A stretch of DNA of 64,000 nucleotides from an uncultured SAR86 cluster bacterium (GTDB taxonomy: Bacteria > Pseudomonadota > Gammaproteobacteria > Magnimaribacterales > D2472). Below the pieces are notes generated by a model. It made no database searches. It saw only the letters and a program-made list of their open reading frames with translations, and had not been told where the DNA came from. Location: contig CACEDS010000002.1 of the NCBI GenBank assembly GCA_902558395.1, positions 9,662-73,661 of the forward strand, read 5' to 3'. The translations under genes were made by a program, and so were the position numbers. Within the stretch, counting starts at the first letter, position 1. Every line of letters starts with the position of its first letter. Shown here in pieces: positions 32,407 to 64,000 of this stretch.

Positions 32407-32700
32407 TTACTTTTCTATCAATGATTTTGATGGCTTGAAGTGCATTGTTGCAGTTTCGCCTAAATATGATACTTCTTTAGTTTTAGGATTAATAAACTTT
32501 CTAGGCCTTATATATTTCTTTGAAAAGGTACCAAATCCTCTTATTTCAACCTTTTCATCTAGCGCAACAGCATCAACAATTGATTCTAAAATGGAATCAA
32601 TTGCTAATGAAATTTGTGATTTATTAAGATTTGGAAACTCTTGACTTAAAGCTAACTCAATATCTGAACGATTGAAAGTCTGTTGTTTCTTGTTACTCAC
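32407..32700 (-). CDS. ihfB: Integration host factor beta subunit
   Basis: [27 protein letters not shown]; immediately after rpsA; GTG start. Confidence 0.88.
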
Positions 32701-34000
32701 TCAGCTTTAAAGATATTCTTTCTCTCTCTGCGTCAACGGCAAAAACTATACAATCTAGTTTATCACCTTTCTTGTATTGCTCCAGTGCTTCTTTTGGATC
32801 TTCGTCTTCAGAAATATCAGACAAATGTATTAATCCATCAATATCACCTTCAAGTCCAACGAATATACCAAAATCAGTAATAGATTTTATTTGACCATCA
32901 ACCTTATCACCGATGCCATATTTATTAGCAAATTCAGTCCAAGGGTTTGCTTTAGTTTGTTTTAGGCCAAGTGAAATTCTTCTTTTATCATGATCAATTT
33001 CCAAGATCATAACTTTAATTTTTTGATCCATTTCAACAACCTTTGAAGGATGGATATTTTTGCTTGTCCAGTCGAGTTCAGATAAATGTATTAATCCTTC
33101 AATACCCTCTTCTAATTGTGCGAAACATCCATAATCAGTAATGTTGGAAACAGATGCTTCGTATACACCACCAACCGCATAGTTGCTTTCAACATTTTCC
33201 CATGGATCATTTTGAATCTGTTTTAATCCTAGAGATACTCTTAATTTTTCTTTATCAAAGCTGAGAATTTTTACATCTATTTCATCGCCAAGATTAAGAA
33301 ATTCTGCAGGATTCGTTACTCTTGACCAAGAGATATCGGTAATGTGAAGCAAGCCATCTAAACCACCTAAGTCTACAAAAGCTCCATAATCAGTAATATT
33401 CTTGACAACACCCTTAACTATTTGACCTTCTTCAAGATTCTTCAACAGCTCAACTTTTACAGCAGAGTTGTTTTTCTCAAGAACAGCTTTTCTTGAAAGA
33501 ACTACATTATTTCTTTTGTAATCAAGTTTGATTACTTTAAATTCTTGTACTGTATTTTCAATATCTGGAGCTTCTTTTACAGGCCTGACATCAACAAGAG
33601 ATCCTGGTAAAAATGCTTTTACAACCTCTACCTCAACAGCAAACCCACCTTTAACTCTATTATGAATTTTACCAGTAACAAACTCTCCGGTTTCTAAAGC
33701 TTCTTCAAGCATTTTCCAAGTTGTTATTTTTCTTGCTTTTTCACGAGAAATTCTTGTTTCTCCATATCCATCTTCAACAGCTTCTAAGGCAACTTCAACC
33801 TCATCACCAACAGATATGTTAACTTCTCCTTCGTTATTTCTGAATTCATCAAGAGGTACAACCCCTTCTGATTTTAAACCTACATGGACTGTTACCCAGT
33901 CGTTATCTACATCCAATACAACTCCAGATACTATTGATCCAGGTTGCATATCTAAAGTGCTTAAACTTTCATCAAGTAAAGCGGCAAATGATTCTGTCAT
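32693..34000 (-). CDS. rpsA: 30S ribosomal protein S1 (five S1 domains)
   Basis: [68 protein letters not shown]; follows cmk. Confidence 0.97.
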
Positions 34001-46992: not shown

Positions 46993-47735
46993 AAATAAAA
47001 AATACATTTGAAAAAAATTTTCTCAACAATAAAAATATTTTAGTCACAGGTGCATCTAAAGGAATAGGTAGAGAATTAGCAGTAACATTAAGCTCCTATG
47101 GGGCAAATATTATTCTACATGGCCGCGATGAAAAGGCTTTGGATAAGATCTATGATGAAATTATAGATACAACAGAAACCTCTCCCCTAATTATTCAATG
47201 CGATTTGAATGATTTAGATGAAAATAAATCACAGAACATTGCAAATGTTATCTCTGAAAATGTAAATATATTAGATGGCATTATTCATAATGCAGCAATA
47301 ATTGGAAAAATGTCATCAATTCATGACTTTGATTTAAAGACCTGGAACAAAGTTATAAATACAAACTTAACTAGTACATATTTGTTAACAAAATATCTCA
47401 CTCCTTTAATGGCTGATTCTAAAAATCCGAGAGTAATATTTACCTCCTCTGGCGTTGTAAGGAAAGGTAGAGCATTTTGGGGAGCGTATGCAATCTCTAA
47501 GACTGCTGTGAAATCTTTAGCTGAGATATTAAATGATGAGCTTGAGCCCATAACAAATATAAAAGTGTTTAATTTTGATCCAGGAGCAACCAGAACTTCA
47601 ATGAGAGCATTTGCTTACCCAGCAGAAAATGCTTCAACTCTTAAAGAGCCATCATCGCTTATGAAATATTACTTATGGATGCTATCAAAAGAAAGTTCAA
47701 AATCAGATACAAGATACATAGAATTTACAAATTAA
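46989..47735 (+). CDS. yciK: YciK-family short-chain oxidoreductase
   Basis: VTGASKGIG, HNAA, FTSSGV...GRAFWGAYAISK, PGATRTSMRAFAYP. Confidence 0.88.
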   Translation: MKIKNTFEKNFLNNKNILVTGASKGIGRELAVTLSSYGANIILHGRDEKALDKIYDEIIDTTETSPLIIQCDLNDLDENKSQNIANVISENVNILDGIIHNAAIIGKMSSIHDFDLKTWNKVINTNLTSTYLLTKYLTPLMADSKNPRVIFTSSGVVRKGRAFWGAYAISKTAVKSLAEILNDELEPITNIKVFNFDPGATRTSMRAFAYPAENASTLKEPSSLMKYYLWMLSKESSKSDTRYIEFTN

Positions 47736-48325
47736 TTATCAAGACTTCTCCATAGATACATGCACAAATATGTCCTGTATGGCGAGTAGTCTATGGCGTC
47801 ATAATTATCTGATTTAAAAAAATCTAACCCTGCTTTTTTTATTCCCAAGTCACCAGTCAAGTAAATGTCTTCTTGTCCAATATAAAACATCTGAATTATT
47901 CCTAAAGTCCATGGCCCTATTCCTTTAATTTTTAAAAATAAATCTGAAATATCAGCCTGATTCATTTTTTTCAGATCTTTTTTTGTAAAACAGTCTAAAT
48001 ATTGATTGCTTAAAACCTCATTAACGTAACTGGCTTTTGGTCTTGATAATCCACAATCACTAAGATCTCCTAATGAAATTCTTTTTTTATTATTAAGCAG
48101 TATTTGAGTTTTTTTCCATATTGATGCAGCTGCCCCTATAGAGACTTGTTGGCCTATGATTGTCTTAATGATAAAAAACTTTAGTGATAAGTTTTTATTC
48201 TGCCTGGAATCTATAGATATTATTTCTGTTTCTTTTAAGAATTTATTAAGTCGATGATGTTTTTTATTTTTTGAAGTTTTTAATAAAAATTTGTAAGCAG
48301 CTTCTGATTTAACATCACTTGCCAT
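47732..48325 (-). CDS. DNA-3-methyladenine glycosylase (AlkA-like HhH-GPD, short form)
   Basis: IIGQQVSI.AA..I, GLSRPKA, IKGIGPWT, DLGIKK, WRS. Confidence 0.82.
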   Translation of the reverse strand: MASDVKSEAAYKFLLKTSKNKKHHRLNKFLKETEIISIDSRQNKNLSLKFFIIKTIIGQQVSIGAAASIWKKTQILLNNKKRISLGDLSDCGLSRPKASYVNEVLSNQYLDCFTKKDLKKMNQADISDLFLKIKGIGPWTLGIIQMFYIGQEDIYLTGDLGIKKAGLDFFKSDNYDAIDYSPYRTYLCMYLWRSLDN

Positions 48326-49619: not shown

Positions 49620-50419
49620 CTTATCGCTCCTTTTGATTTTAAAAAAATCTCTTCAGTTTCGTTTTGTATTAATTCAAGATGCCCATCTTTGGCTAGTTCT
49701 AAAGATGCGAGGAAGGTCACTACCACCCCTTGCCTGCCTTCAGTTTTTCTAAGAGTTTTAGAAAAACTAATAACATTTCTTTTTGAAAGTATCTCAAGAA
49801 TAATCTGTATTCTCTCTTGAGTTGATAGTTCTTCAAAGTCTATTTGGTGATTAGATTTTAAGTCAGGCCTATTTTTAACTTCATGAAAAATAGCAACAAG
49901 TTCATCTTTGGTAATTTGTATATCTTTTTTTTCTACTTCGATTTTCGGAAGCGAAGCCGACGCAAGAAAAAAATCTCTATCAACTCTTGGTAGAATTGCT
50001 ATTTTTTCTGAGACAGTCTTATACCTTTGATATTCTTGAAGTCTTTTTATAAGAGCGGACTTAGGATCATCTTCCTCTTCTTCATGCACATCTTGAGGCA
50101 ACATCATTCTTGATTTAATTTCAGCTAATGTTGCTGCCATTACTAAATATTCAGCAGCTAGCTCAAACTGCAAAGCATCCATCAAGTCTATATATTCAAT
50201 ATATTGATCAGTGATTTTAGATACATCTAAATCAAGAATATTAATATTTTCTTTCTTTATTAAATATAGCAATAAATCCATTGGTCCAGAAAAAGTTTCT
50301 AGACAAAGTTCTAATGCATTTGGCGGTATAAAAAGATCGTCAGGAATAGTCTCGTATGGCTGACCCATTACGGTTGGAAACTCTAACTGTGTATGAGTGT
50401 TATTTTGCATGATAAACAC
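49616..50419 (-). CDS. scpA: Kleisin ScpA
   Basis: LETFSGPMDLLLYLI, AAEYLVMAATLAEIKSR, VVTFLASLEL; true start may be ATG 50410. Confidence 0.95.
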   Translation of the reverse strand: MFIMQNNTHTQLEFPTVMGQPYETIPDDLFIPPNALELCLETFSGPMDLLLYLIKKENINILDLDVSKITDQYIEYIDLMDALQFELAAEYLVMAATLAEIKSRMMLPQDVHEEEEDDPKSALIKRLQEYQRYKTVSEKIAILPRVDRDFFLASASLPKIEVEKKDIQITKDELVAIFHEVKNRPDLKSNHQIDFEELSTQERIQIILEILSKRNVISFSKTLRKTEGRQGVVVTFLASLELAKDGHLELIQNETEEIFLKSKGAIS

Positions 50420-50593
50420 TACATAGTGTAAGGTTTAGAGCTTATTAATACAACATATTGTGTCTTTTAACTTTTTTTAATTTTCTAGAGAAAATGATGA
50501 AAAAATTATTCTTATATAAAAATTCATATAACCTCTACTAATTTTATTTCATTCATTTAATATTAATGCGCAATTTAGAAAAAATAATTAAAA

Positions 50594-51643
50594 ATGAATT
50601 ATTCAACAGACAATACCAGGATTATTGATAGGCAAAAAGTTCCTGCTCCATATGAGTTGGTGAATAAGCACCCTATAAATGATGACATTTCTAAGCTTGT
50701 ATATGGAACAAGACAAGAAATTAGCCAAATTTTGCATGACAAGGATGATCGCTTATTAGTGGTTGTTGGCCCATGTTCTATTCATGATCCTGAGAGTGCG
50801 ATTGAATATGGAAAAAAATTAATCGAACAAAATATTAAATTCAAAGAAGAGCTGTTAATAGTGATGAGGGTTTATTTTGAAAAACCCAGAACAACAGTTG
50901 GATGGAAAGGTCTTATAAACGATCCTGACCTCAATGAAAGCTTCAAAATTGGTAAAGGTGTTGAGATGGCTAGGAAACTTTTAATAGATCTAGCTAAATT
51001 AAATCTACCTGCAGGTACAGAGTTTCTTGACCCTATTTCTCCCCAATATATTACTGATATTATTTCTTGGGGAGCTATTGGTGCTAGAACGGCTGAAAGT
51101 CAAATTCATAGAGAATTGGCATCAGGACTTTCTTGCCCTATTGGTATAAAAAATGCAACAAATGGTGGTCTCAAAGCAGCTATAGATGGAATTCAAGCAG
51201 CAAATCACTCTCACGTTTTCCTTGGTGCTACCAAAGAATCTGATATAGCTATGTTAAAAACAGCAGGTAATAATGATGCTCACATTATTCTTAGAGGTGG
51301 TAAAGAGCCAAATTATGATAGTGATTCTATTAATGAAACTTTAATTGCGCTTAGAGAAGCTGAAGTTAATGAGTCAATTATGATTGATGCTAGTCATGGT
51401 AATAGTCAAAAACAATTTAAACAACAACTGCCTGTAATTGAAAATATCTCTAGTCAAATTTCAAATGGCAATAAAAACATCAAAGGTGTAATGATAGAAA
51501 GTCACCTTGTTGAGGGTAATCAAAAAATTTCTGACTCTCTTGTATATGGTCAAAGCATTACTGATGCATGTATTGGTTGGGATGATACTGTTTCATGTCT
51601 GCAAAGTTTGAGCGATGCAGTGACTAAAAGAAGGAGCTCATAG
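50594..51643 (+). CDS. aroG: Class I DAHP synthase
   Basis: VVGPCSIHD, RVYFEKPRTTVGWKG, IGARTAESQIHRE, DASHGNS, SITDACIGW; feedback specificity (aroG/F/H) not resolvable. Confidence 0.93.
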   Translation: MNYSTDNTRIIDRQKVPAPYELVNKHPINDDISKLVYGTRQEISQILHDKDDRLLVVVGPCSIHDPESAIEYGKKLIEQNIKFKEELLIVMRVYFEKPRTTVGWKGLINDPDLNESFKIGKGVEMARKLLIDLAKLNLPAGTEFLDPISPQYITDIISWGAIGARTAESQIHRELASGLSCPIGIKNATNGGLKAAIDGIQAANHSHVFLGATKESDIAMLKTAGNNDAHIILRGGKEPNYDSDSINETLIALREAEVNESIMIDASHGNSQKQFKQQLPVIENISSQISNGNKNIKGVMIESHLVEGNQKISDSLVYGQSITDACIGWDDTVSCLQSLSDAVTKRRSS

Positions 51644-51647
51644 GCTA

Positions 51648-52451
51648 TTGAAAGACTTTGATAGAATTTCCTTTTCAAAAGATGTTGCTGAAACCTTAGG
51701 AATCGAAGCTGCAATAATACTTGAACTATACCAACAAAATAAAATCACCTATTCCGGTGATTCTGAGCTCTTTAAAACTTTGGTAAAGCAAGAATTACCT
51801 TTCATTGAGCATGCGCTTATTGAGGCATGTCTAAAAAAACTATTAAATTACAAGCTGATATCAAATTCACAAGAAATAACAAACAAAAAAAATTACAATT
51901 TAAAAGCTGCTCAAGCAAATAATACAAAAAAATTAAAAATCGATTCAAATTGGTCACCATCCAATGAAGCTTTGGAAATTCTAAATATGGGTGAAATCCC
52001 AAAAACTTTCATTTCAAGCAAAGTAAAAGAATTTGTTTTATATTGGACAGAAAGAGGACAAGAACGAAATAACTGGAACACTTCTTTTATAGATTACATT
52101 AGAAGAGAATGGGCAAAGGAACAAAGTTCAACTAAAGGGCTACCACATACTATAGATTTCGAATGGTCTCCAAGTAATGATGCATATGATATCCTTGAAT
52201 TATCTGATATCTCAAAAGAATCAGCTTCAAAATATTTAAGAGAATTTATACTATACTGGAAAGAGAATGGTTCTGCTTTCACAACATGGAACTCTAAATT
52301 TATTGAACATGTAAAAAGAAGACATATATCAGATAACCAAAATTTAAAAGATGAAGAAAATCAAAAACATACTGAACCAGGAAAATATGGAAAAGACTTT
52401 TCAGCAAGAAAAGGTGACTCCTCTTGGGCGTCAGAAATCAACTTTGAATAA
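51648..52451 (+). CDS. DnaT-like DNA-binding protein with two tandem DnaT domains (lambda O-derived DopC-like)
   Basis: N-terminal FSKDVAETLGIEAAIIL; internal repeat WSPSNEA...EFVLYW...WNTSFIDYIRR and WSPSNDA...EFILYW...WNSKFIEHVKR; TTG start. Confidence 0.72.
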   Translation: MKDFDRISFSKDVAETLGIEAAIILELYQQNKITYSGDSELFKTLVKQELPFIEHALIEACLKKLLNYKLISNSQEITNKKNYNLKAAQANNTKKLKIDSNWSPSNEALEILNMGEIPKTFISSKVKEFVLYWTERGQERNNWNTSFIDYIRREWAKEQSSTKGLPHTIDFEWSPSNDAYDILELSDISKESASKYLREFILYWKENGSAFTTWNSKFIEHVKRRHISDNQNLKDEENQKHTEPGKYGKDFSARKGDSSWASEINFE

Positions 52452-52998
52452 AGAAAAATATATTGAGTGCATTGACAATTTATTCCTTAAACTCGAATTG
52501 GCATATCACTATCAATTTTATAAAGTCTTTGGTACTGATGACAGGCTAAATGAGGGTAAAAAACTTTGGGCAATGAGTTTGAAGTCTTTTTCTCCAGAAA
52601 TAATTACAGAAGCAACTGAAAATGTAATAGGTGCTCAGTCATATTTACCAACACTAACAGATTTTCTTAAGGCTTGTTCTGAAATAAATAGTCATAACGG
52701 TTTTCCTTCAGTAGAAGAGGCATATATTGAAGCAAGAAAATCATATGCACCGAGAGCAGAATTTTCATGGAGCCATCCAATCGTTTATTTCACAGGTAAA
52801 AAAATAGGTTGGAATTTCATAGATGAAAAAGATAGTAGAGAATTGTTTTCTTCTTTTAAAAAGATTTTTAATAAACTTAAAGAAGATGTATTAAATGGTA
52901 AAGAATTTAAAATTCCAACTCCTGACTCAAACAGATCTGAAAATAAACCAATGAACAAGAAACTTTTTGAAAGCCTCAGAAAAAAGCACAACGTATAG
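52444..52998 (+). CDS. Lambda replication protein P-like helicase loader (DopE-like)
   Basis: F.KLELAYHYQF.K.F, KKLW...L, YLPTLTDF...C, PSVEEAY.EA, WSHPIVY..G...GW; start set at TTG 52444 overlapping the upstream stop (track start 52351). Confidence 0.75.
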   Translation: MNKEKYIECIDNLFLKLELAYHYQFYKVFGTDDRLNEGKKLWAMSLKSFSPEIITEATENVIGAQSYLPTLTDFLKACSEINSHNGFPSVEEAYIEARKSYAPRAEFSWSHPIVYFTGKKIGWNFIDEKDSRELFSSFKKIFNKLKEDVLNGKEFKIPTPDSNRSENKPMNKKLFESLRKKHNV

Positions 52999-53059
52999 AA
53001 TTAAACTGAACCATTGGTTTAACACTTTTGTCTAAACTAAAATGATAAAATAATTAAAT

Positions 53060-53929
53060 ATGACTAAGAATATAAGAATATCTTTATATATCCTCATACC
53101 AATAATTCTTTGGATGGTATCTGGTTTTTTTGTAACAGATCAAAAAGAACCAGAAAATATAAAAAATGAGCTCTTTGCTGTGGGTGTAACTACCAGTAAT
53201 GCCGTTGAGTATCAACCCACAATTAAATTAAAAGCTACTTCACAATCTGAAGCTAGAGTTAATGTAAGAGCAAAGACCTCAGGTGAGGTAGTAAAAATAG
53301 GCTCAACTCAGGGACAATTTGTTGAAAAAGATTCTATTCTTTGTAGCTTAGGTGTTGTTGAGTTAAACAGAACAGAGGTTAAAGCACCCTTTTCTGGATT
53401 CATTGAACAAATTGTAAAACCTGGAAATTTTCTTGAAAGAGGACAGGTTTGTGCAACTATAATCCAACTCAACCCTATTATATTTTCTGCTGAAGTCCCA
53501 GAATTTAATATTAATAAAGTTGAAACAGGTCAAGAAGTTCTTATTAGTTTGATTACTGGTGAAGTTATTAAAGGTAATTTAACATTCGTTTCAAAAAGTG
53601 CTTCAACCTCAACAAGAACTTTTAAAGTTGAATCTCAAATTCAAAACAAAGATGGGATGGTAAGAGATGGCATTACTGCAGAGATGATAATAAAAACAAA
53701 ATTTGTAAAAGCACACAAAATCTCACCATCAATTCTAATACTTAACGATAACGGCAAAATTGGAGTTCGATCAGTTATTGATGGTGTTGTTGTTTTTCAT
53801 AATGTCTCAATATTAGAGGACTCTGAATCAGGATTATGGATTACTGACATACCTGATTCGCTTGATCTTATTGTTCAAGGTCAAGGGTTTGTTGAAGATG
53901 GTCAACAAGTGATTACAAACCAAATATGA
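53060..53929 (+). CDS. RND efflux periplasmic adaptor (MFP), lacking the alpha-helical hairpin
   Basis: N-terminal TM, lipoyl halves AKTSGEV...LCSL and EVKAPFSG, beta-barrel ASTSTRTFKVE, GQGFV; 4-nt overlap with the permease. Confidence 0.88.
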   Translation: MTKNIRISLYILIPIILWMVSGFFVTDQKEPENIKNELFAVGVTTSNAVEYQPTIKLKATSQSEARVNVRAKTSGEVVKIGSTQGQFVEKDSILCSLGVVELNRTEVKAPFSGFIEQIVKPGNFLERGQVCATIIQLNPIIFSAEVPEFNINKVETGQEVLISLITGEVIKGNLTFVSKSASTSTRTFKVESQIQNKDGMVRDGITAEMIIKTKFVKAHKISPSILILNDNGKIGVRSVIDGVVVFHNVSILEDSESGLWITDIPDSLDLIVQGQGFVEDGQQVITNQI

Positions 53930-56900
53930 CAAGAATTATAGATTTTGCTTTGTCAAAAGCAAAAACAACTTTAATGATTGCATTTATGATCATTATTGCC
54001 GGATCGTATGCAAGACAAGAAATATCTATTGCTGCTTCTCCTAACGTCCAACTACCCTTTATAAGTGTTTCTGTTTATTTGGATGGAGCATCCCCTAGTG
54101 ATACATCAAGATTAATAGCAAAGCCACTTGAAAATAGACTAATGACAGTTTCTGGAGTGAAAAGTATTAGCTCAAGAAGCACTTTAAGTTTTGCAAGAAT
54201 ATTCCTTGAATTTGAAGTTGGCTACGATATGGATGAGGCCTTAGTAGACATTAAGCAAGCTGTCGAAGAAACTAAATATGAGCTACCAAGAGAAGCTGAA
54301 GATCCTCAAATATCTGAATACTCAGAGGCAAGTTTCCCCGTAATGAATATCAGCATTATTGGCAATAGTTCGATTAGACAAAAAGTCTTTTATGCAAAAG
54401 AGCTAAAAGATAAGGTTGAGAGCCTTGAAGAAATATTGCAAGCCAATCTTTCTGGAGCACCTGAAGAGGTTCTTGAAGGAGTAATAAATAAATCTCGAAT
54501 GGAATCTTATGAGGTTACTCTAAGTGATATTTATTATTCAGTATCAAACAATAATTTAATTATTCCCGGAGGTACACAAGATACTGGTAAAGGTAGTTTT
54601 AATATCGAAGTGCCTAGCGTTATTGAAACTGCTCAAGATGTTTACTCTATTCCGATTAAAGTTACCAAAGATGCCATAGTAACCCTAGGTGATATTGCAG
54701 ATATTAAAAGAACTTTTAAAGATTTTACATCCTATGCAAGAATTAACGGTCAAGATGCAGTCACTTTAGAGGTTCAACTAAGAGACGGGGCTAATTCAAT
54801 AGATGCATCTTATGCCATAAAAGATATATTGAATGACTATGAAAAAACCCTTCCAGAAAATTTAGAAATATTAATTACCCAAGATGATACTTTGTACTCC
54901 ATTGATATGGTTAAAGAGCTCAATGGAAATATTATTGCTGCAGTTGTTTTAATAATGGTTCTCGTGATTGCAAGTATGGGATTTAGAGTATCAATGCTAG
55001 TAGGTCTATCCATACCCTTTTGTTTTTTATTTACTTATCTAATTTTCTTTTCTCTTGGTATGGAAATAAATTTCCTTGTCATGATGGGGTTACTTCTTGG
55101 GATGGGGATGTTAATTGACGGAGCCATTGTGATTACTGAATATGCTGATAAAAAAATTGGAGAAGGTCTTTCAAGATCAGAAGGCTATAAAATGGCATCA
55201 AAAAGGATGTTTTATCCAATAGTGGCTTCGACAGGAACTACTATGGCTGCCTTCATACCAGTAATGTTGTGGCCAGGTTTTACTGGTCAGTTTATGCGAT
55301 ATCTTCCAATAACAGTTTTTACAGTATTAGCTGGCTCCCTTATTTATTCATTGATCATGATTCCTGTTTTAGGGTCATATCTTGGACAACAGGATTCAGC
55401 ACTCAATAAAGACGAAGGTAGAGACTCTATATTTAAAAAATTAACTGAACTATATGGAAAAAGAATTGCAAAATTTGTAAAGAATCCAATTGAAACATGT
55501 ATAGCGGTTGCTTCAGTATTATTAATAATAATTATGAGTTATTCCTATTTTGGAAAAGGAACAATTTATTTTGCCCTGGTTGATCCTGTAGAAGCAAATG
55601 TAACTATTAAAGCTAGAGGCAATTATTCTGCATTAGAGACAAAAGAAATTGTTCAACAAGTCGAAGAAAAATTCTTAGAAGTTCCAGGATTAGGTAGTGT
55701 TTATTTAAGAGCTGGTAGTGAATGGTGGAATAGAGAAGCAGATAAAATTGGTGGTGGGTTTGTAGAAGTGGCACCTGCTGCAGAAAGAGAAATATCTGGG
55801 TTAAAAATAATGGAGCTTTTAAGTGAATCAGTGAATGATATGCCAGGTATATTTGTAGAAATTTCTCCTGATTTAGGAGGTCCATCTTTTGATAATCCAA
55901 TTGAATTAGACTTGTATGGCAATAGTGAAGATGATGTTAATACTGCAGCAGATATCATTGAAGCTCATATGAGAAATAATATTAAAGGCCTAAAAAATAT
56001 TACTTCATCAAAATCATATCCATCAGTTGAATGGAGTGTTGAAGTAGATAAGCAAAAAGCAGCTCAATTAGGTGTGAGTGTTGCTGATGTAGGTGCATTA
56101 GTACAAATGCTAACTAATGGATTTAAGGTTGGTGAATATAGGCCAGATGACTCAAGAGATGAAGTAGAAATCAGAGCTAGATTCCCTCAGTCTGATAGAA
56201 CTATCACCGGAATACAAAATTTAAACGTAATAACTCTTGAAGGCCTAGTTCCTGTGAGTTCTTTTATATCAGTGGTGCCAAAAGAAAATAGACAATCTGT
56301 TAATAGAAGAGATGGAAAATTTACACAACAAATTGGTGCAGCAACAATAGATGAATCTAAAGTTGCAGAGAAAGTTGAAGAAATTGATTTATGGCTAAAG
56401 TCTGCTGATTTAAGCAAAGGAGTAACTTACAAATTTACTGGCATGGCAGAAGAAACTGAAGATGTAAATAATTTTATGATAGCTGCAGGTATTATGGCTG
56501 TATTTATAATGCTGCTTATGCTTTTAACCCAATTTAACAGCTTTTATCAGTCATTCATAATTCTTACATCCGTAACAATTTCTTTTGTTGGTGTCTTGCT
56601 GGGTTTATTAATAACAGGAAAGCCATTTAGTACAACAATGACAGGATTATCGATTGTTACCCTAGCTGGGATTGTAGTTAATAACAATATTGTACTAATC
56701 GATACCTTTAATAAACTAAGAGAAGAATCTCCACATGTTGAAAACTCAACTCATATAATCAATGCATGCAAGCAAAGACTAAGACCTATCCTACTTACAT
56801 CCCTTACAACCATTTTTGGTCTTTTGCCCTTGGCAATGGGAGTTAGTTTGGACATTATTGCAAGAGATATTGCCCTTGGTAGCCCAATTGTAGATTGGTG

Positions 56901-57036
56901 GTCAAATCTAGCAGTATCTATTGTATTTGGTTTGGCATTCAGTACTTTTATTACTTTGATATTAACTCCAGCTGTTTTATCTCTGCCATATGCTTTAAGA
57001 AATGATTTCAAAAAGTTTTTTAAAACAGCTAATTAA
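53926..57036 (+). CDS. RND efflux permease (AcrB/AcrD/AcrF family)
   Basis: 1036 aa, 12-TM pattern, GMLIDGAIVITE, GIVVNNNIVLID, RLRPILLTSLTT. Confidence 0.95.
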   Translation: MTRIIDFALSKAKTTLMIAFMIIIAGSYARQEISIAASPNVQLPFISVSVYLDGASPSDTSRLIAKPLENRLMTVSGVKSISSRSTLSFARIFLEFEVGYDMDEALVDIKQAVEETKYELPREAEDPQISEYSEASFPVMNISIIGNSSIRQKVFYAKELKDKVESLEEILQANLSGAPEEVLEGVINKSRMESYEVTLSDIYYSVSNNNLIIPGGTQDTGKGSFNIEVPSVIETAQDVYSIPIKVTKDAIVTLGDIADIKRTFKDFTSYARINGQDAVTLEVQLRDGANSIDASYAIKDILNDYEKTLPENLEILITQDDTLYSIDMVKELNGNIIAAVVLIMVLVIASMGFRVSMLVGLSIPFCFLFTYLIFFSLGMEINFLVMMGLLLGMGMLIDGAIVITEYADKKIGEGLSRSEGYKMASKRMFYPIVASTGTTMAAFIPVMLWPGFTGQFMRYLPITVFTVLAGSLIYSLIMIPVLGSYLGQQDSALNKDEGRDSIFKKLTELYGKRIAKFVKNPIETCIAVASVLLIIIMSYSYFGKGTIYFALVDPVEANVTIKARGNYSALETKEIVQQVEEKFLEVPGLGSVYLRAGSEWWNREADKIGGGFVEVAPAAEREISGLKIMELLSESVNDMPGIFVEISPDLGGPSFDNPIELDLYGNSEDDVNTAADIIEAHMRNNIKGLKNITSSKSYPSVEWSVEVDKQKAAQLGVSVADVGALVQMLTNGFKVGEYRPDDSRDEVEIRARFPQSDRTITGIQNLNVITLEGLVPVSSFISVVPKENRQSVNRRDGKFTQQIGAATIDESKVAEKVEEIDLWLKSADLSKGVTYKFTGMAEETEDVNNFMIAAGIMAVFIMLLMLLTQFNSFYQSFIILTSVTISFVGVLLGLLITGKPFSTTMTGLSIVTLAGIVVNNNIVLIDTFNKLREESPHVENSTHIINACKQRLRPILLTSLTTIFGLLPLAMGVSLDIIARDIALGSPIVDWWSNLAVSIVFGLAFSTFITLILTPAVLSLPYALRNDFKKFFKTAN

Positions 57037-63634: not shown

Positions 63635-64000
63635 ATGGAATCTAACATCAAAGATAAAAATCTTTCACAGAGTGATGCTGTTTTTAGTAATTCGGAATCT
63701 ATAAAAGATTATGATCAAGAATTATGGCAGTCTTTTGAACAAGAAGCTATAAGGCAAGAGGATCATATAGAATTAATCGCTTCAGAAAATTATGCCAGTC
63801 ATAGAGTACTTGAAGCTCAAGGCTCATTATTAACAAATAAATATGCTGAAGGATATCCATCTAAAAGGTACTATGGTGGTTGCGAATATGTGGATATTGC
63901 AGAAGATATAGCTATATCAAGAGCTAAAGAGCTTTTTAAAGCGGATTATGCTAATGTTCAGCCTCATTCGGGCTCCTCAGCAAATGCTGCTGCCTTCTTA
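63635..64000 (+). CDS. glyA: Serine hydroxymethyltransferase, 5' part (truncated by window edge)
   Basis: Not in ORF track. From ATG 63635: [43 protein letters not shown]; open to the window end. Confidence 0.95.

Follow-up and report, generated by a model that had tools for sequence, protein, structure and literature searches.

A DopC/DopE-type gene pair fixed in the SAR86 cluster, a probable phage-derived loader of the DnaB helicase

Introduction

One of the questions raised by the chromosome of an uncultured SAR86 cluster bacterium is which proteins load its replicative helicase, DnaB. Helicase loading is an essential step of replication, for which bacteria have DciA or DnaC/DnaI, with DopCE proposed as a third solution. 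In the work of Brezellec et al. 2017 (PMC5509034), dopC is the upstream companion of dopE and has a helix-turn-helix (HTH) N-terminus and a DnaT C-terminal motif. In this paper we looked at two overlapping genes at positions 51648 to 52998 of a 64-kb stretch of SAR86 DNA (hereafter, the window), which a first-pass annotation, made from the sequence alone, had labelled dopC/dopE-like. Our analysis indicates that the pair is probably the SAR86 ortholog of DopC/DopE, that is, a domesticated phage replication module acting as DnaB loader. The two genes are read in the same direction, dopE in the next reading frame relative to dopC:

51648-52451, + strand: dopC, an open reading frame (ORF) of 267 amino acids (aa) with a TTG start
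52351-52998, + strand: dopE, 215 aa, with an ATG start

DopE: family, fold and domains

DopE is a lambda-P-family protein, both by a sequence model above its cut-off and by its fold. It matches Pfam PF06992 (Phage_lambda_P) with 32.4 bits (cut-off 26) over profile positions 2-159 of 162, and PHROG 109, 'P-like helicase loader', at 8.8e-14. The AlphaFold2 model of DopE, built from a 38-sequence alignment, is all-helical with a mean predicted local distance difference test (pLDDT) score of 79, and its top three PDB matches, with probability 1.0 and E 1e-4 to 1e-3 over 184-227 aligned columns, are all lambda P chains from 9OA1, the structure of lambda P bound to DnaB. By hhalign, DopE residues 35-147 are aligned on lambda P 34-155 with ~19% identity.

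Lambda P begins and ends with a lasso, domain I (1-29) at the N-terminus and domain IV (193-233) at the C-terminus. Between them, domain II (30-119) makes the oligomer of the loader and domain III (120-192) binds the DnaB subunit interfaces; the C-terminal lasso binds where the docking helix (DH) of one DnaB subunit meets the neighbour's linker helix (LH) (PMC12661323). The limits of the equivalent DopE domains were mapped from these definitions, the hhalign alignment and the model, which predicts that DopE shares with lambda P the fold and the four-domain layout of N-lasso, oligomerisation domain, DnaB-interface domain and C-lasso:

52351-52443, + strand: DopE domain I equivalent, residues 1-31, a MKKIKNILNQEN helix and a disordered stretch (model helix 5-11, otherwise low pLDDT), putative counterpart of the lambda P N-lasso
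52444-52695, + strand: DopE domain II equivalent, residues 32-115, with invariant AYHYQFYK and KKLW motifs (pLDDT 88-93), G39P-like
52696-52893, + strand: DopE domain III equivalent, residues 116-181, with a WSHPIVYF motif and an alignment to lambda P 119-155
52894-52995, + strand: DopE domain IV (C-lasso) equivalent, residues 182-215, with model helix 203-212

The C-terminal end of DopE carries an LRKKH helix, in which L209, R210 and K212 are invariant in 19 SAR86 sequences including short forms of the protein, and similar basic amphipathic ends are found in lambda P, in the P protein of Pseudomonas phage Ab31 and in other DopE. The short forms came to light in a sample of loci for which one genome per species was scanned with DopE; this gave 78 loci, almost all with a SAR86 label and spanning DopE identities of 41-100%. 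In some SAR86 lineages, and unlike the published DopC/DopE, DopE has only 144-151 aa (locus L070, 6001-6432; loci L071-L077, e.g. L071, 6001-6423) and is without the domain III block (about residues 117-186 of the window's DopE), with domains I, II and IV retained, the LRKKH helix included. On a tree of the neighbouring genes a fully supported branch separates L070 from L071-L077, and the edges of the deletion differ between them, which suggests two independent losses of domain III in SAR86.

Based on these likenesses, DopE would be a compact, ring-opening loader of the lambda P type, several copies of which would sit on the C-terminal tier of the DnaB hexamer. Its domain II would make the oligomer, its domain III would lie at the DnaB subunit interfaces and its C-terminal lasso helix would bind at the junction of one DnaB subunit's docking helix and the neighbour's linker helix, and the oligomer would hold DnaB open so that single-stranded DNA (ssDNA) can enter.

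After lambda P, the next informative match of DopE is the N-terminal domain of SPP1 G39P (1NO1; hidden Markov model E 0.01, Foldseek template-modelling score to target 0.79), which agrees with domain II in profile and fold over ~60-70 residues only, namely DopE 64-123. SPP1 is a Firmicutes phage, in which the helicase partner of G39P is G40P. This likeness, together with an OM182 homolog that is named 'helicase inhibitor G39P N-terminal domain-containing' in UniRef, could mean that DopE is a regulator or inhibitor of DnaB and not a loader, keeping the helicase inactive until its release; lambda P, too, suppresses the DnaB ATPase and forms an auto-inhibited complex (PMC12661323). However, G39P and lambda P are themselves loaders that inhibit until hand-off, so no separate activity follows from the likeness, and DopE retains the full four-domain layout predicted from lambda P, including both lassos. 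We therefore regard a purely regulatory DopE as very improbable.

DopC: DnaT repeats, N-terminal domain and tail

The tandem-DnaT nature that had been read for DopC at first pass is confirmed by two domains of Pfam DnaT (PF17948; E 1e-38, 131 bits, cut-off 25). The AlphaFold2 model of DopC (mean pLDDT 76) shows an N-terminal domain, a disordered linker (residues 75-92), two three-helix DnaT domains (96-159 and 167-231 in the model), a disordered stretch and a short, conserved tail:

51648-51863, + strand: DopC N-terminal four-helix domain, residues 1 to about 72 (model helices 11-17, 19-29, 39-49 and 55-67; pLDDT 81-87)
51933-52133, + strand: DnaT ssDNA-binding domain repeat 1, residues 96-162 (PF17948 stretch 98-162), with a Y-W dyad
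52146-52340, + strand: DnaT ssDNA-binding domain repeat 2, residues 167-231 (second PF17948 stretch; model helices 177-231, pLDDT 79-88), with a Y-W dyad
52371-52448, + strand: DopC C-terminal tail EPGKY..DSSWASEINFE with a DxSWA motif, the proposed docking peptide for DopE

The best Foldseek matches of the DnaT repeats are the DnaT-ssDNA structures 4OU6 and 6AEQ (probability 0.9-1.0, template-modelling score to target 0.58-0.68). The Y-W dyad of both repeats aligns with Y127/W128 of E. coli DnaT, which mutational data show to be needed for ssDNA binding (PMC4132743), and the same binding by DopC can be expected. The DnaT-related matches of DopC, in Pfam and in fold, fall only on these repeats of the C-terminal type. 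Since the C-terminal domains (CTDs) of DnaT form a filament on ssDNA with two nucleotides held per interface (PMC13377028), the tandem array of DopC may be, by analogy, a pre-assembled short filament. The number of DnaT domains per DopC is two in SAR86 (51648-52451), three in OM182 (L080, 4953-6089), three in Luminiphilus (L084, 3938-5098) and four in a Cellvibrionaceae metagenome-assembled genome (L085, 3677-5023), so that the array of SAR86 is the shortest seen, as is its DopC, at 267 aa vs 378-448 aa elsewhere. When fused or dopE-less forms were looked for with a DopC profile, the best 120 matches held only SAR86 DopC of 261-284 aa.

The E. coli dnaT-dnaC pair resembles the SAR86 pair in that the gene right before that of the DnaB loader encodes an ssDNA-binding protein with a DnaT domain, and the DnaT fold and the Y-W dyad are kept. 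However, the E. coli loader is the AAA+ protein DnaC whereas that of SAR86 is of the lambda P type, and E. coli DnaT has one filamenting CTD and an oligomerising N-terminal domain (PMC13377028) whereas DopC has two DnaT domains per chain and an apparently unrelated N-terminal domain. This resemblance leads to the possibility that DopC/DopE serve only in PriA-type restart, as dnaT-dnaC do, and that another loader (DciA or one still unknown) works at oriC. In its favour, the only known setting of the DnaT domain is the restart primosome, in which filaments of the CTD take hold of lagging-strand ssDNA (PMC13377028). The 2017 paper also considered a connection with the reactivation of forks (PMC5509034), and our check for DciA in SAR86 covers the 64-kb window. 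Yet DopE is the only gene strictly tied to genomes without dciA and dnaC in the published set (PMC5509034), lambda P acts at an origin, the E. coli restart loader DnaC also serves oriC, and the pair adjoins dnaB in Halieaceae. A module for restart alone is thus unlikely. In the proposed mechanism DopC would be the adaptor, with its two linked DnaT domains binding ssDNA at the DnaA-opened origin or at abandoned forks.

The N-terminal domain of DopC finds weak Foldseek matches to the winged-helix regulators Zur/PerR (probability 0.18-0.25) and, as modelled, is possibly a winged helix. Published DopC has an HTH N-terminus, whereas the SAR86 N-terminal domain is without a detectable HTH: neither HTH nor Phage_rep_O (PF04492, at E <= 0.1) matched in Pfam in the 19 SAR86 DopC, nor in the DopC of Luminiphilus and Cellvibrionaceae. 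Lambda O and Ab31 O were positive for PF04492 (5.7e-36 and 3.9e-19). The hhalign comparison of DopC against lambda O and phage O proteins gave 0.2-4% probability. DopC differs from lambda O in having neither the Phage_rep_O domain nor iterons nor an in-gene origin, with DnaT domains in place of the O CTD.

Nevertheless, O-type proteins have a C-terminal end that resembles the tail of DopC. The DxSWA motif is found at or near the C-terminus of DopC in four lineages (SAR86, OM182, Luminiphilus and Cellvibrionaceae). It also occurs close to the C-terminal end of O-like proteins from three Pseudomonas phages, Ab31, PAJU2 and PAE2 (NDTSWAVGLEQDLF); the P proteins of these phages are, among phage proteins, some of the nearest to DopE. 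Lambda O ends in NTDWIYGVDL. The CTD of lambda O is the part of O that contacts P. From the shared tail motif and this contact we infer that the DopC tail docks DopE. The DxSWA tail would then be inherited from a phage O-type partner and would dock the DopE-DnaB complex. The lambda O CTD (156-299) was included in the cryo-electron microscopy sample of DnaB-lambda P, where no density was seen for it (PMC12661323). The first-pass label lambda O/P-like therefore holds for the P half, by Pfam and fold; its O half is weak, with gene order and a short C-terminal motif as the only links.

Start codons and the dual-coding overlap

Another question regards where the two genes begin. Upstream of dopC, two features are of relevance:

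50594-51643, + strand: aroG, DAHP synthase (Pfam DAHP_synth_1, 1e-90), the upstream gene in the same transcription unit
51631-51636, + strand: Shine-Dalgarno-like AAGGAG, read from the sequence, inside the aroG coding sequence, 11 nt before the dopC TTG

The aroG stop codon TAG occupies 51641-51643 and the TTG at 51648 lies 4 nt further on, directly after aroG as had been described at first pass. Among 19 sampled loci the dopC start codon is TTG in 13, ATG in four and GTG in two, situated 0-8 nt past the aroG stop except for one ATG that overlaps aroG by 8 nt, and in most of them AGGAG/AGAGG-like sites are found at the equivalent position within the aroG 3' end. The TTG start of dopC is real and conserved. 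The use of TTG by most SAR86 species, 1-8 nt behind the aroG stop, suggests a low, aroG-coupled translation of the adaptor.

For dopE the first-pass annotation had proposed a TTG start as well. The overlap of the two genes and the TTG of dopC stood up, whereas the TTG of dopE did not: as the main start, TTG 52444, which would leave an overlap of 8 nt, has an equivalent in 19 of the 77 loci with both genes, vs 77 of 77 for an in-frame ATG equivalent to 52351. Relative to the end of the dopC stop codon this ATG is offset by -100 in 64 loci, -97 in six and -73 in seven, and the dopE frame is open throughout the overlap in every one. Because of this conservation, dopE very probably starts at ATG 52351 and overlaps dopC by 101 nt:

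52351-52451, + strand: dual-coding overlap of 101 nt, comprising the last 33 dopC codons and the stop, and dopE codons 1-33 and the start of codon 34, one base out of register

Of the dopC codon pairs with the same amino acid, a share of 0.45 differ outside the overlap and 0.24 inside, where 0.40 would be expected from the same amino acids outside. The N-terminus of DopE that is encoded here, MKKIKNILNQEN in SAR86, has the counterparts MKKTKAILDQLE in Cellvibrionaceae and MQKINPLLDQAS in OM182 and resembles MKNIAAQMVNFD of lambda P. OM182 and Luminiphilus also have long dopC/dopE overlaps, of 89 and 98 nt, respectively. According to the proposed mechanism, one and the same DNA stretch would encode both the DopC tail and the N-terminal lasso of DopE.

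Residency in SAR86

A pair with a phage-like loader also raises the question of whether it belongs to the host chromosome. In all 78 loci, wherever the contig extends, the gene order is rluB-scpB-scpA followed by aroG-dopC-dopE-hlyD-acrB; in the window the last two of these are:

53060-57036, + strand: hlyD-type membrane-fusion gene and acrB-type resistance-nodulation-division (RND) pump gene (Pfam), context, apparently co-transcribed

The ratio of nonsynonymous to synonymous substitution rates (dN/dS) in unsaturated pairs is 0.06-0.12 for dopC and 0.07-0.08 for dopE, and 0.06-0.15 and 0.04-0.08, respectively, when further pairs with usable dS are added. The neighbouring hlyD, at 0.07-0.09, is close to these values, and aroG, at 0.02-0.06, is somewhat lower. 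Pairwise distances of DopC+DopE follow those of AroG+HlyD+ScpA (Mantel r 0.95, with none of 999 permutations as high), the pair evolving ~1.5x faster than these neighbours.

The Pfam scan of the window took in every ORF of at least 110 aa in the 64 kb. The neighbours are gyrA, serC, pheA, hisC, tyrA, aroA, cmk, rpsA, pntAB, scpAB, ispA, dxs, thiL, nth and glyA as well as a glycan-synthesis island; all matching ORFs belong to housekeeping or glycan synthesis, and none is a phage gene, an integrase included. This agrees with the housekeeping context without phage genes described at first pass. From the fixed gene order, the low dN/dS, the divergence that tracks that of the neighbours and the lack of any phage gene in 64 kb it follows that dopC/dopE is a resident, chromosomally fixed and vertically inherited pair in SAR86 under purifying selection, and not a prophage remnant; the patchy remnant which the first-pass annotation had named as the alternative is excluded within SAR86 by the same gene order in all 78 loci.

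One could still imagine that a P-like gene of phage ancestry has no role in host replication and is either a decaying or selfish remnant or an anti-phage device that ties up DnaB, and it was speculated that a domesticated loader could hinder phages (PMC5509034). However, a locus fixed in all 78 species of a genome-streamlined order, with dN/dS of 0.04-0.15 and divergence that tracks its neighbours, hardly fits this explanation. In addition to the missing integrase and phage genes, the PADLOC defence models gave no match, and in IMG/VR no relative with the AYH[NY]QF[HY] signature of DopE was found. We consider this option highly improbable.

Relation to published DopCE and to phage proteins

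In order to place the pair, DopE relatives were collected with a profile of 19 SAR86 DopE, which led to 944 cluster representatives and a tree of 105 proteins. SAR86 DopE form one clade (SH-aLRT 99) on a long stem, nested in a group of 80-83 rows (support 82-89) with proteins of Luminiphilus (Halieaceae), Cellvibrionaceae, Pseudomonadales, OM182 and Pseudohongiellaceae. Neither lambda P nor Ab31 P belongs to this group, and the deep branches have modest support. As in SAR86, a DnaT-array gene with an overlapping P-like gene behind it is found in OM182, Luminiphilus and Cellvibrionaceae. For example, in Luminiphilus sp. CP179213.1 (L084, 3938-7145) a dopC with three DnaT domains and a dopE overlapping it by 98 nt lie between radA and a convergent dnaB-rplI-rpsR-rpsF block, so that the pair adjoins the helicase gene dnaB.

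Like the pair in SAR86, published DopC/DopE (PMC5509034) has a lambda-P-family gene behind a DnaT-domain gene, a housekeeping context outside prophages and purifying selection, and both have the long dopC/dopE overlap, the DxSWA tail and an MKKxKxILxQ N-terminus. The neighbours differ: aroG and the RND pump in SAR86, radA/dnaB in Luminiphilus and glyA-nrdR-ribD in OM182. Domain content, gene order, fold, fixed context, purifying selection and the grouping with Cellvibrionales DopE bear out the dopC/dopE-like label. NCBIfam has no model for DopC or DopE.

SAR86 (Magnimaribacterales) is a deep order that groups with Francisellales and has Pseudomonadales as outgroup (PMC11582366). The SAR86 pair is a new lineage of DopCE, in an order outside the clade originally described. 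Because the long overlap, the DxSWA tail and the N-terminus are shared derived traits, the common architecture of SAR86 and other DopCE argues for one origin, followed either by old inheritance with losses or by transfer between orders. The location of glyA may be a trace of an older shared synteny: the gene for serine hydroxymethyltransferase (window 63635-64000) lies ~11 kb downstream of dopE in SAR86 and ~2 kb downstream of dopE in OM182 (L080, 8568-9821), where nrdR and ribD follow.

On the phage side, the nearest P proteins in 50,697 phage records are ~24% identical to DopE, and DopC has no tblastn match in the same records. The matches in BFVD are only weak (E 0.01-0.4); they are phage replication proteins that carry HTH, DUF1376 or DnaT domains, a slight hint that phages may have had an HTH+DnaT layout already. 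Lambda O/P resembles the SAR86 pair in its order, partner gene first and loader second. Yet O and P are phage genes that overlap by 4 nt, whereas SAR86 dopC/dopE is a fixed cellular pair with an overlap of 101 nt.

VdhL1/VdhL2 of Vibrionaceae (PMC11087808) are, like DopCE, virus-derived loaders that replace dciA in gammaproteobacterial chromosomes, and they are weakly lambda-P-like, with a possible O-like partner (PMC11087808). Unlike DopCE, which is fixed across SAR86, they form a separate family that is undetected by PF06992, sporadic and repeatedly acquired, with some experimental support.

Expression and the location of the origin

Marine and aquatic metatranscriptome runs contain the dopCE stretch. 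Run X2 holds one contig over 51046-52429 (aroG into dopC) and another over 52449-54326 (dopE into the start of acrB), with zero depth over the intergenic region between scpA and aroG, and runs X13 and X10 have contigs across the aroG-dopC junction and the dopC-dopE overlap. These contigs, which may include carried-over DNA, fit a single transcript from aroG through the pump genes. A scan for promoters and terminators over 50300-53200 returned sites no more frequently than in shuffled sequence.

The locus was also considered as a replication origin and rejected: 50400-53100 has no iteron-like repeat family, DnaA boxes are not in excess (three in the whole window, all between 7.5 and 19 kb and none near the locus, with ~4 expected by chance), and the GC skew in the window follows gene orientation. 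Several very long SAR86 contigs (L008, L011, L012, L029, L042, L056 and L061) terminate about 6-43 kb from dopCE. The first part of the window (1-24212) is a low-GC island (26-33%, mostly <30%; window G+C ~31%) with glycosyltransferase, sugar epimerase/dehydrogenase, Wzz and heparinase-like genes, and is probably a hypervariable surface-glycan region. An assembly break at such an island would explain the contig ends, which are therefore not evidence that an origin is near.

Weighing the loader hypothesis

Several points weigh against the assignment of the pair as the DnaB loader of SAR86. The PF06992 score is modest (32 bits), and against single-sequence lambda P hhalign gives DopE only 39% probability. 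Homology of the DopC N-terminal domain to lambda O is not demonstrable, with no Pfam match and hhalign below 5%. Two SAR86 lineages have a DopE without domain III, the source of a large share of the DnaB contacts in lambda P (PMC12661323). DopCE in Cellvibrionales and dciA-less Oceanospirillales was itself proposed by phylogenomics only, as the first-pass annotation had correctly stated (PMC5509034), and later papers cite DopE only as a suggestion (PMC11087808, PMC12661323). A single domestication in an ancestor of Cellvibrionales/Oceanospirillales does not cover SAR86, which lies outside Pseudomonadales. DciA, IstB, DnaC and DnaI have no Pfam match in the ORFs of the window, a result that covers these 64 kb, and the possible carry-over of DNA applies to the transcript data. 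The supplementary files of the SAR86 isolate paper (PMC11582366) have no mention of DciA, DnaC, DnaT or protein P.

Even with these points, a DopC/DopE ortholog that loads DnaB is the probable explanation, with DopE binding the helicase and the pair presumably standing in for DciA. A bolder version can be put forward tentatively. DopCE would be the sole DnaB loader of SAR86, a minimal, hard-wired machine in which both docking peptides, the O-type DxSWA tail of DopC and the N-lasso of DopE, come from the 101-nt stretch, the DnaT pair is a covalent mini-filament and the DopE without domain III is functional with its oligomerisation domain and lassos; the domesticated pair would have moved between marine gammaproteobacterial orders, displacing DciA more than once. 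If DopCE is the sole loader, this would apply to a group that ranks among the most abundant bacteria of the surface ocean.

Other features of the window

Two further genes of the window were noted. A 197-aa ORF at 47732-48325 (- strand) has no Pfam match at E 1e-3, and by eye a helix-hairpin-helix (HhH) GIGPWT motif like that of HhH-GPD DNA glycosylases (AlkA type) can be seen in it. The gene of ribosomal protein S1 at 32693-34000 (- strand) is short (434-435 aa) with five Pfam S1 stretches, compared with six in E. coli S1, which may reflect streamlining.

Conclusion

Our results add a lineage to a known system and do not describe a new one. SAR86, whose genomes are very small, is a dominant clade in the ocean, and fixation of the pair throughout it widens the host range of DopCE to an order that does not belong to the clade for which it was proposed. 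Such fixation argues for a core function and against phage debris. The first-pass annotation had seen in the compact pair a good experimental model, which is true for biochemistry with synthesised genes and less so for genetics, as there is a single SAR86 isolate, first reported in 2024 (PMC11582366). For such biochemistry, SAR86 provides the smallest natural versions of the proteins (267 aa for DopC; 215 aa, or 144-151 aa in the short forms, for DopE). Three features, namely the conserved overlap of the genes, the tail of the O type and the loss of domain III in nature, each yield a testable statement on the parts that a loader of the lambda P type needs.

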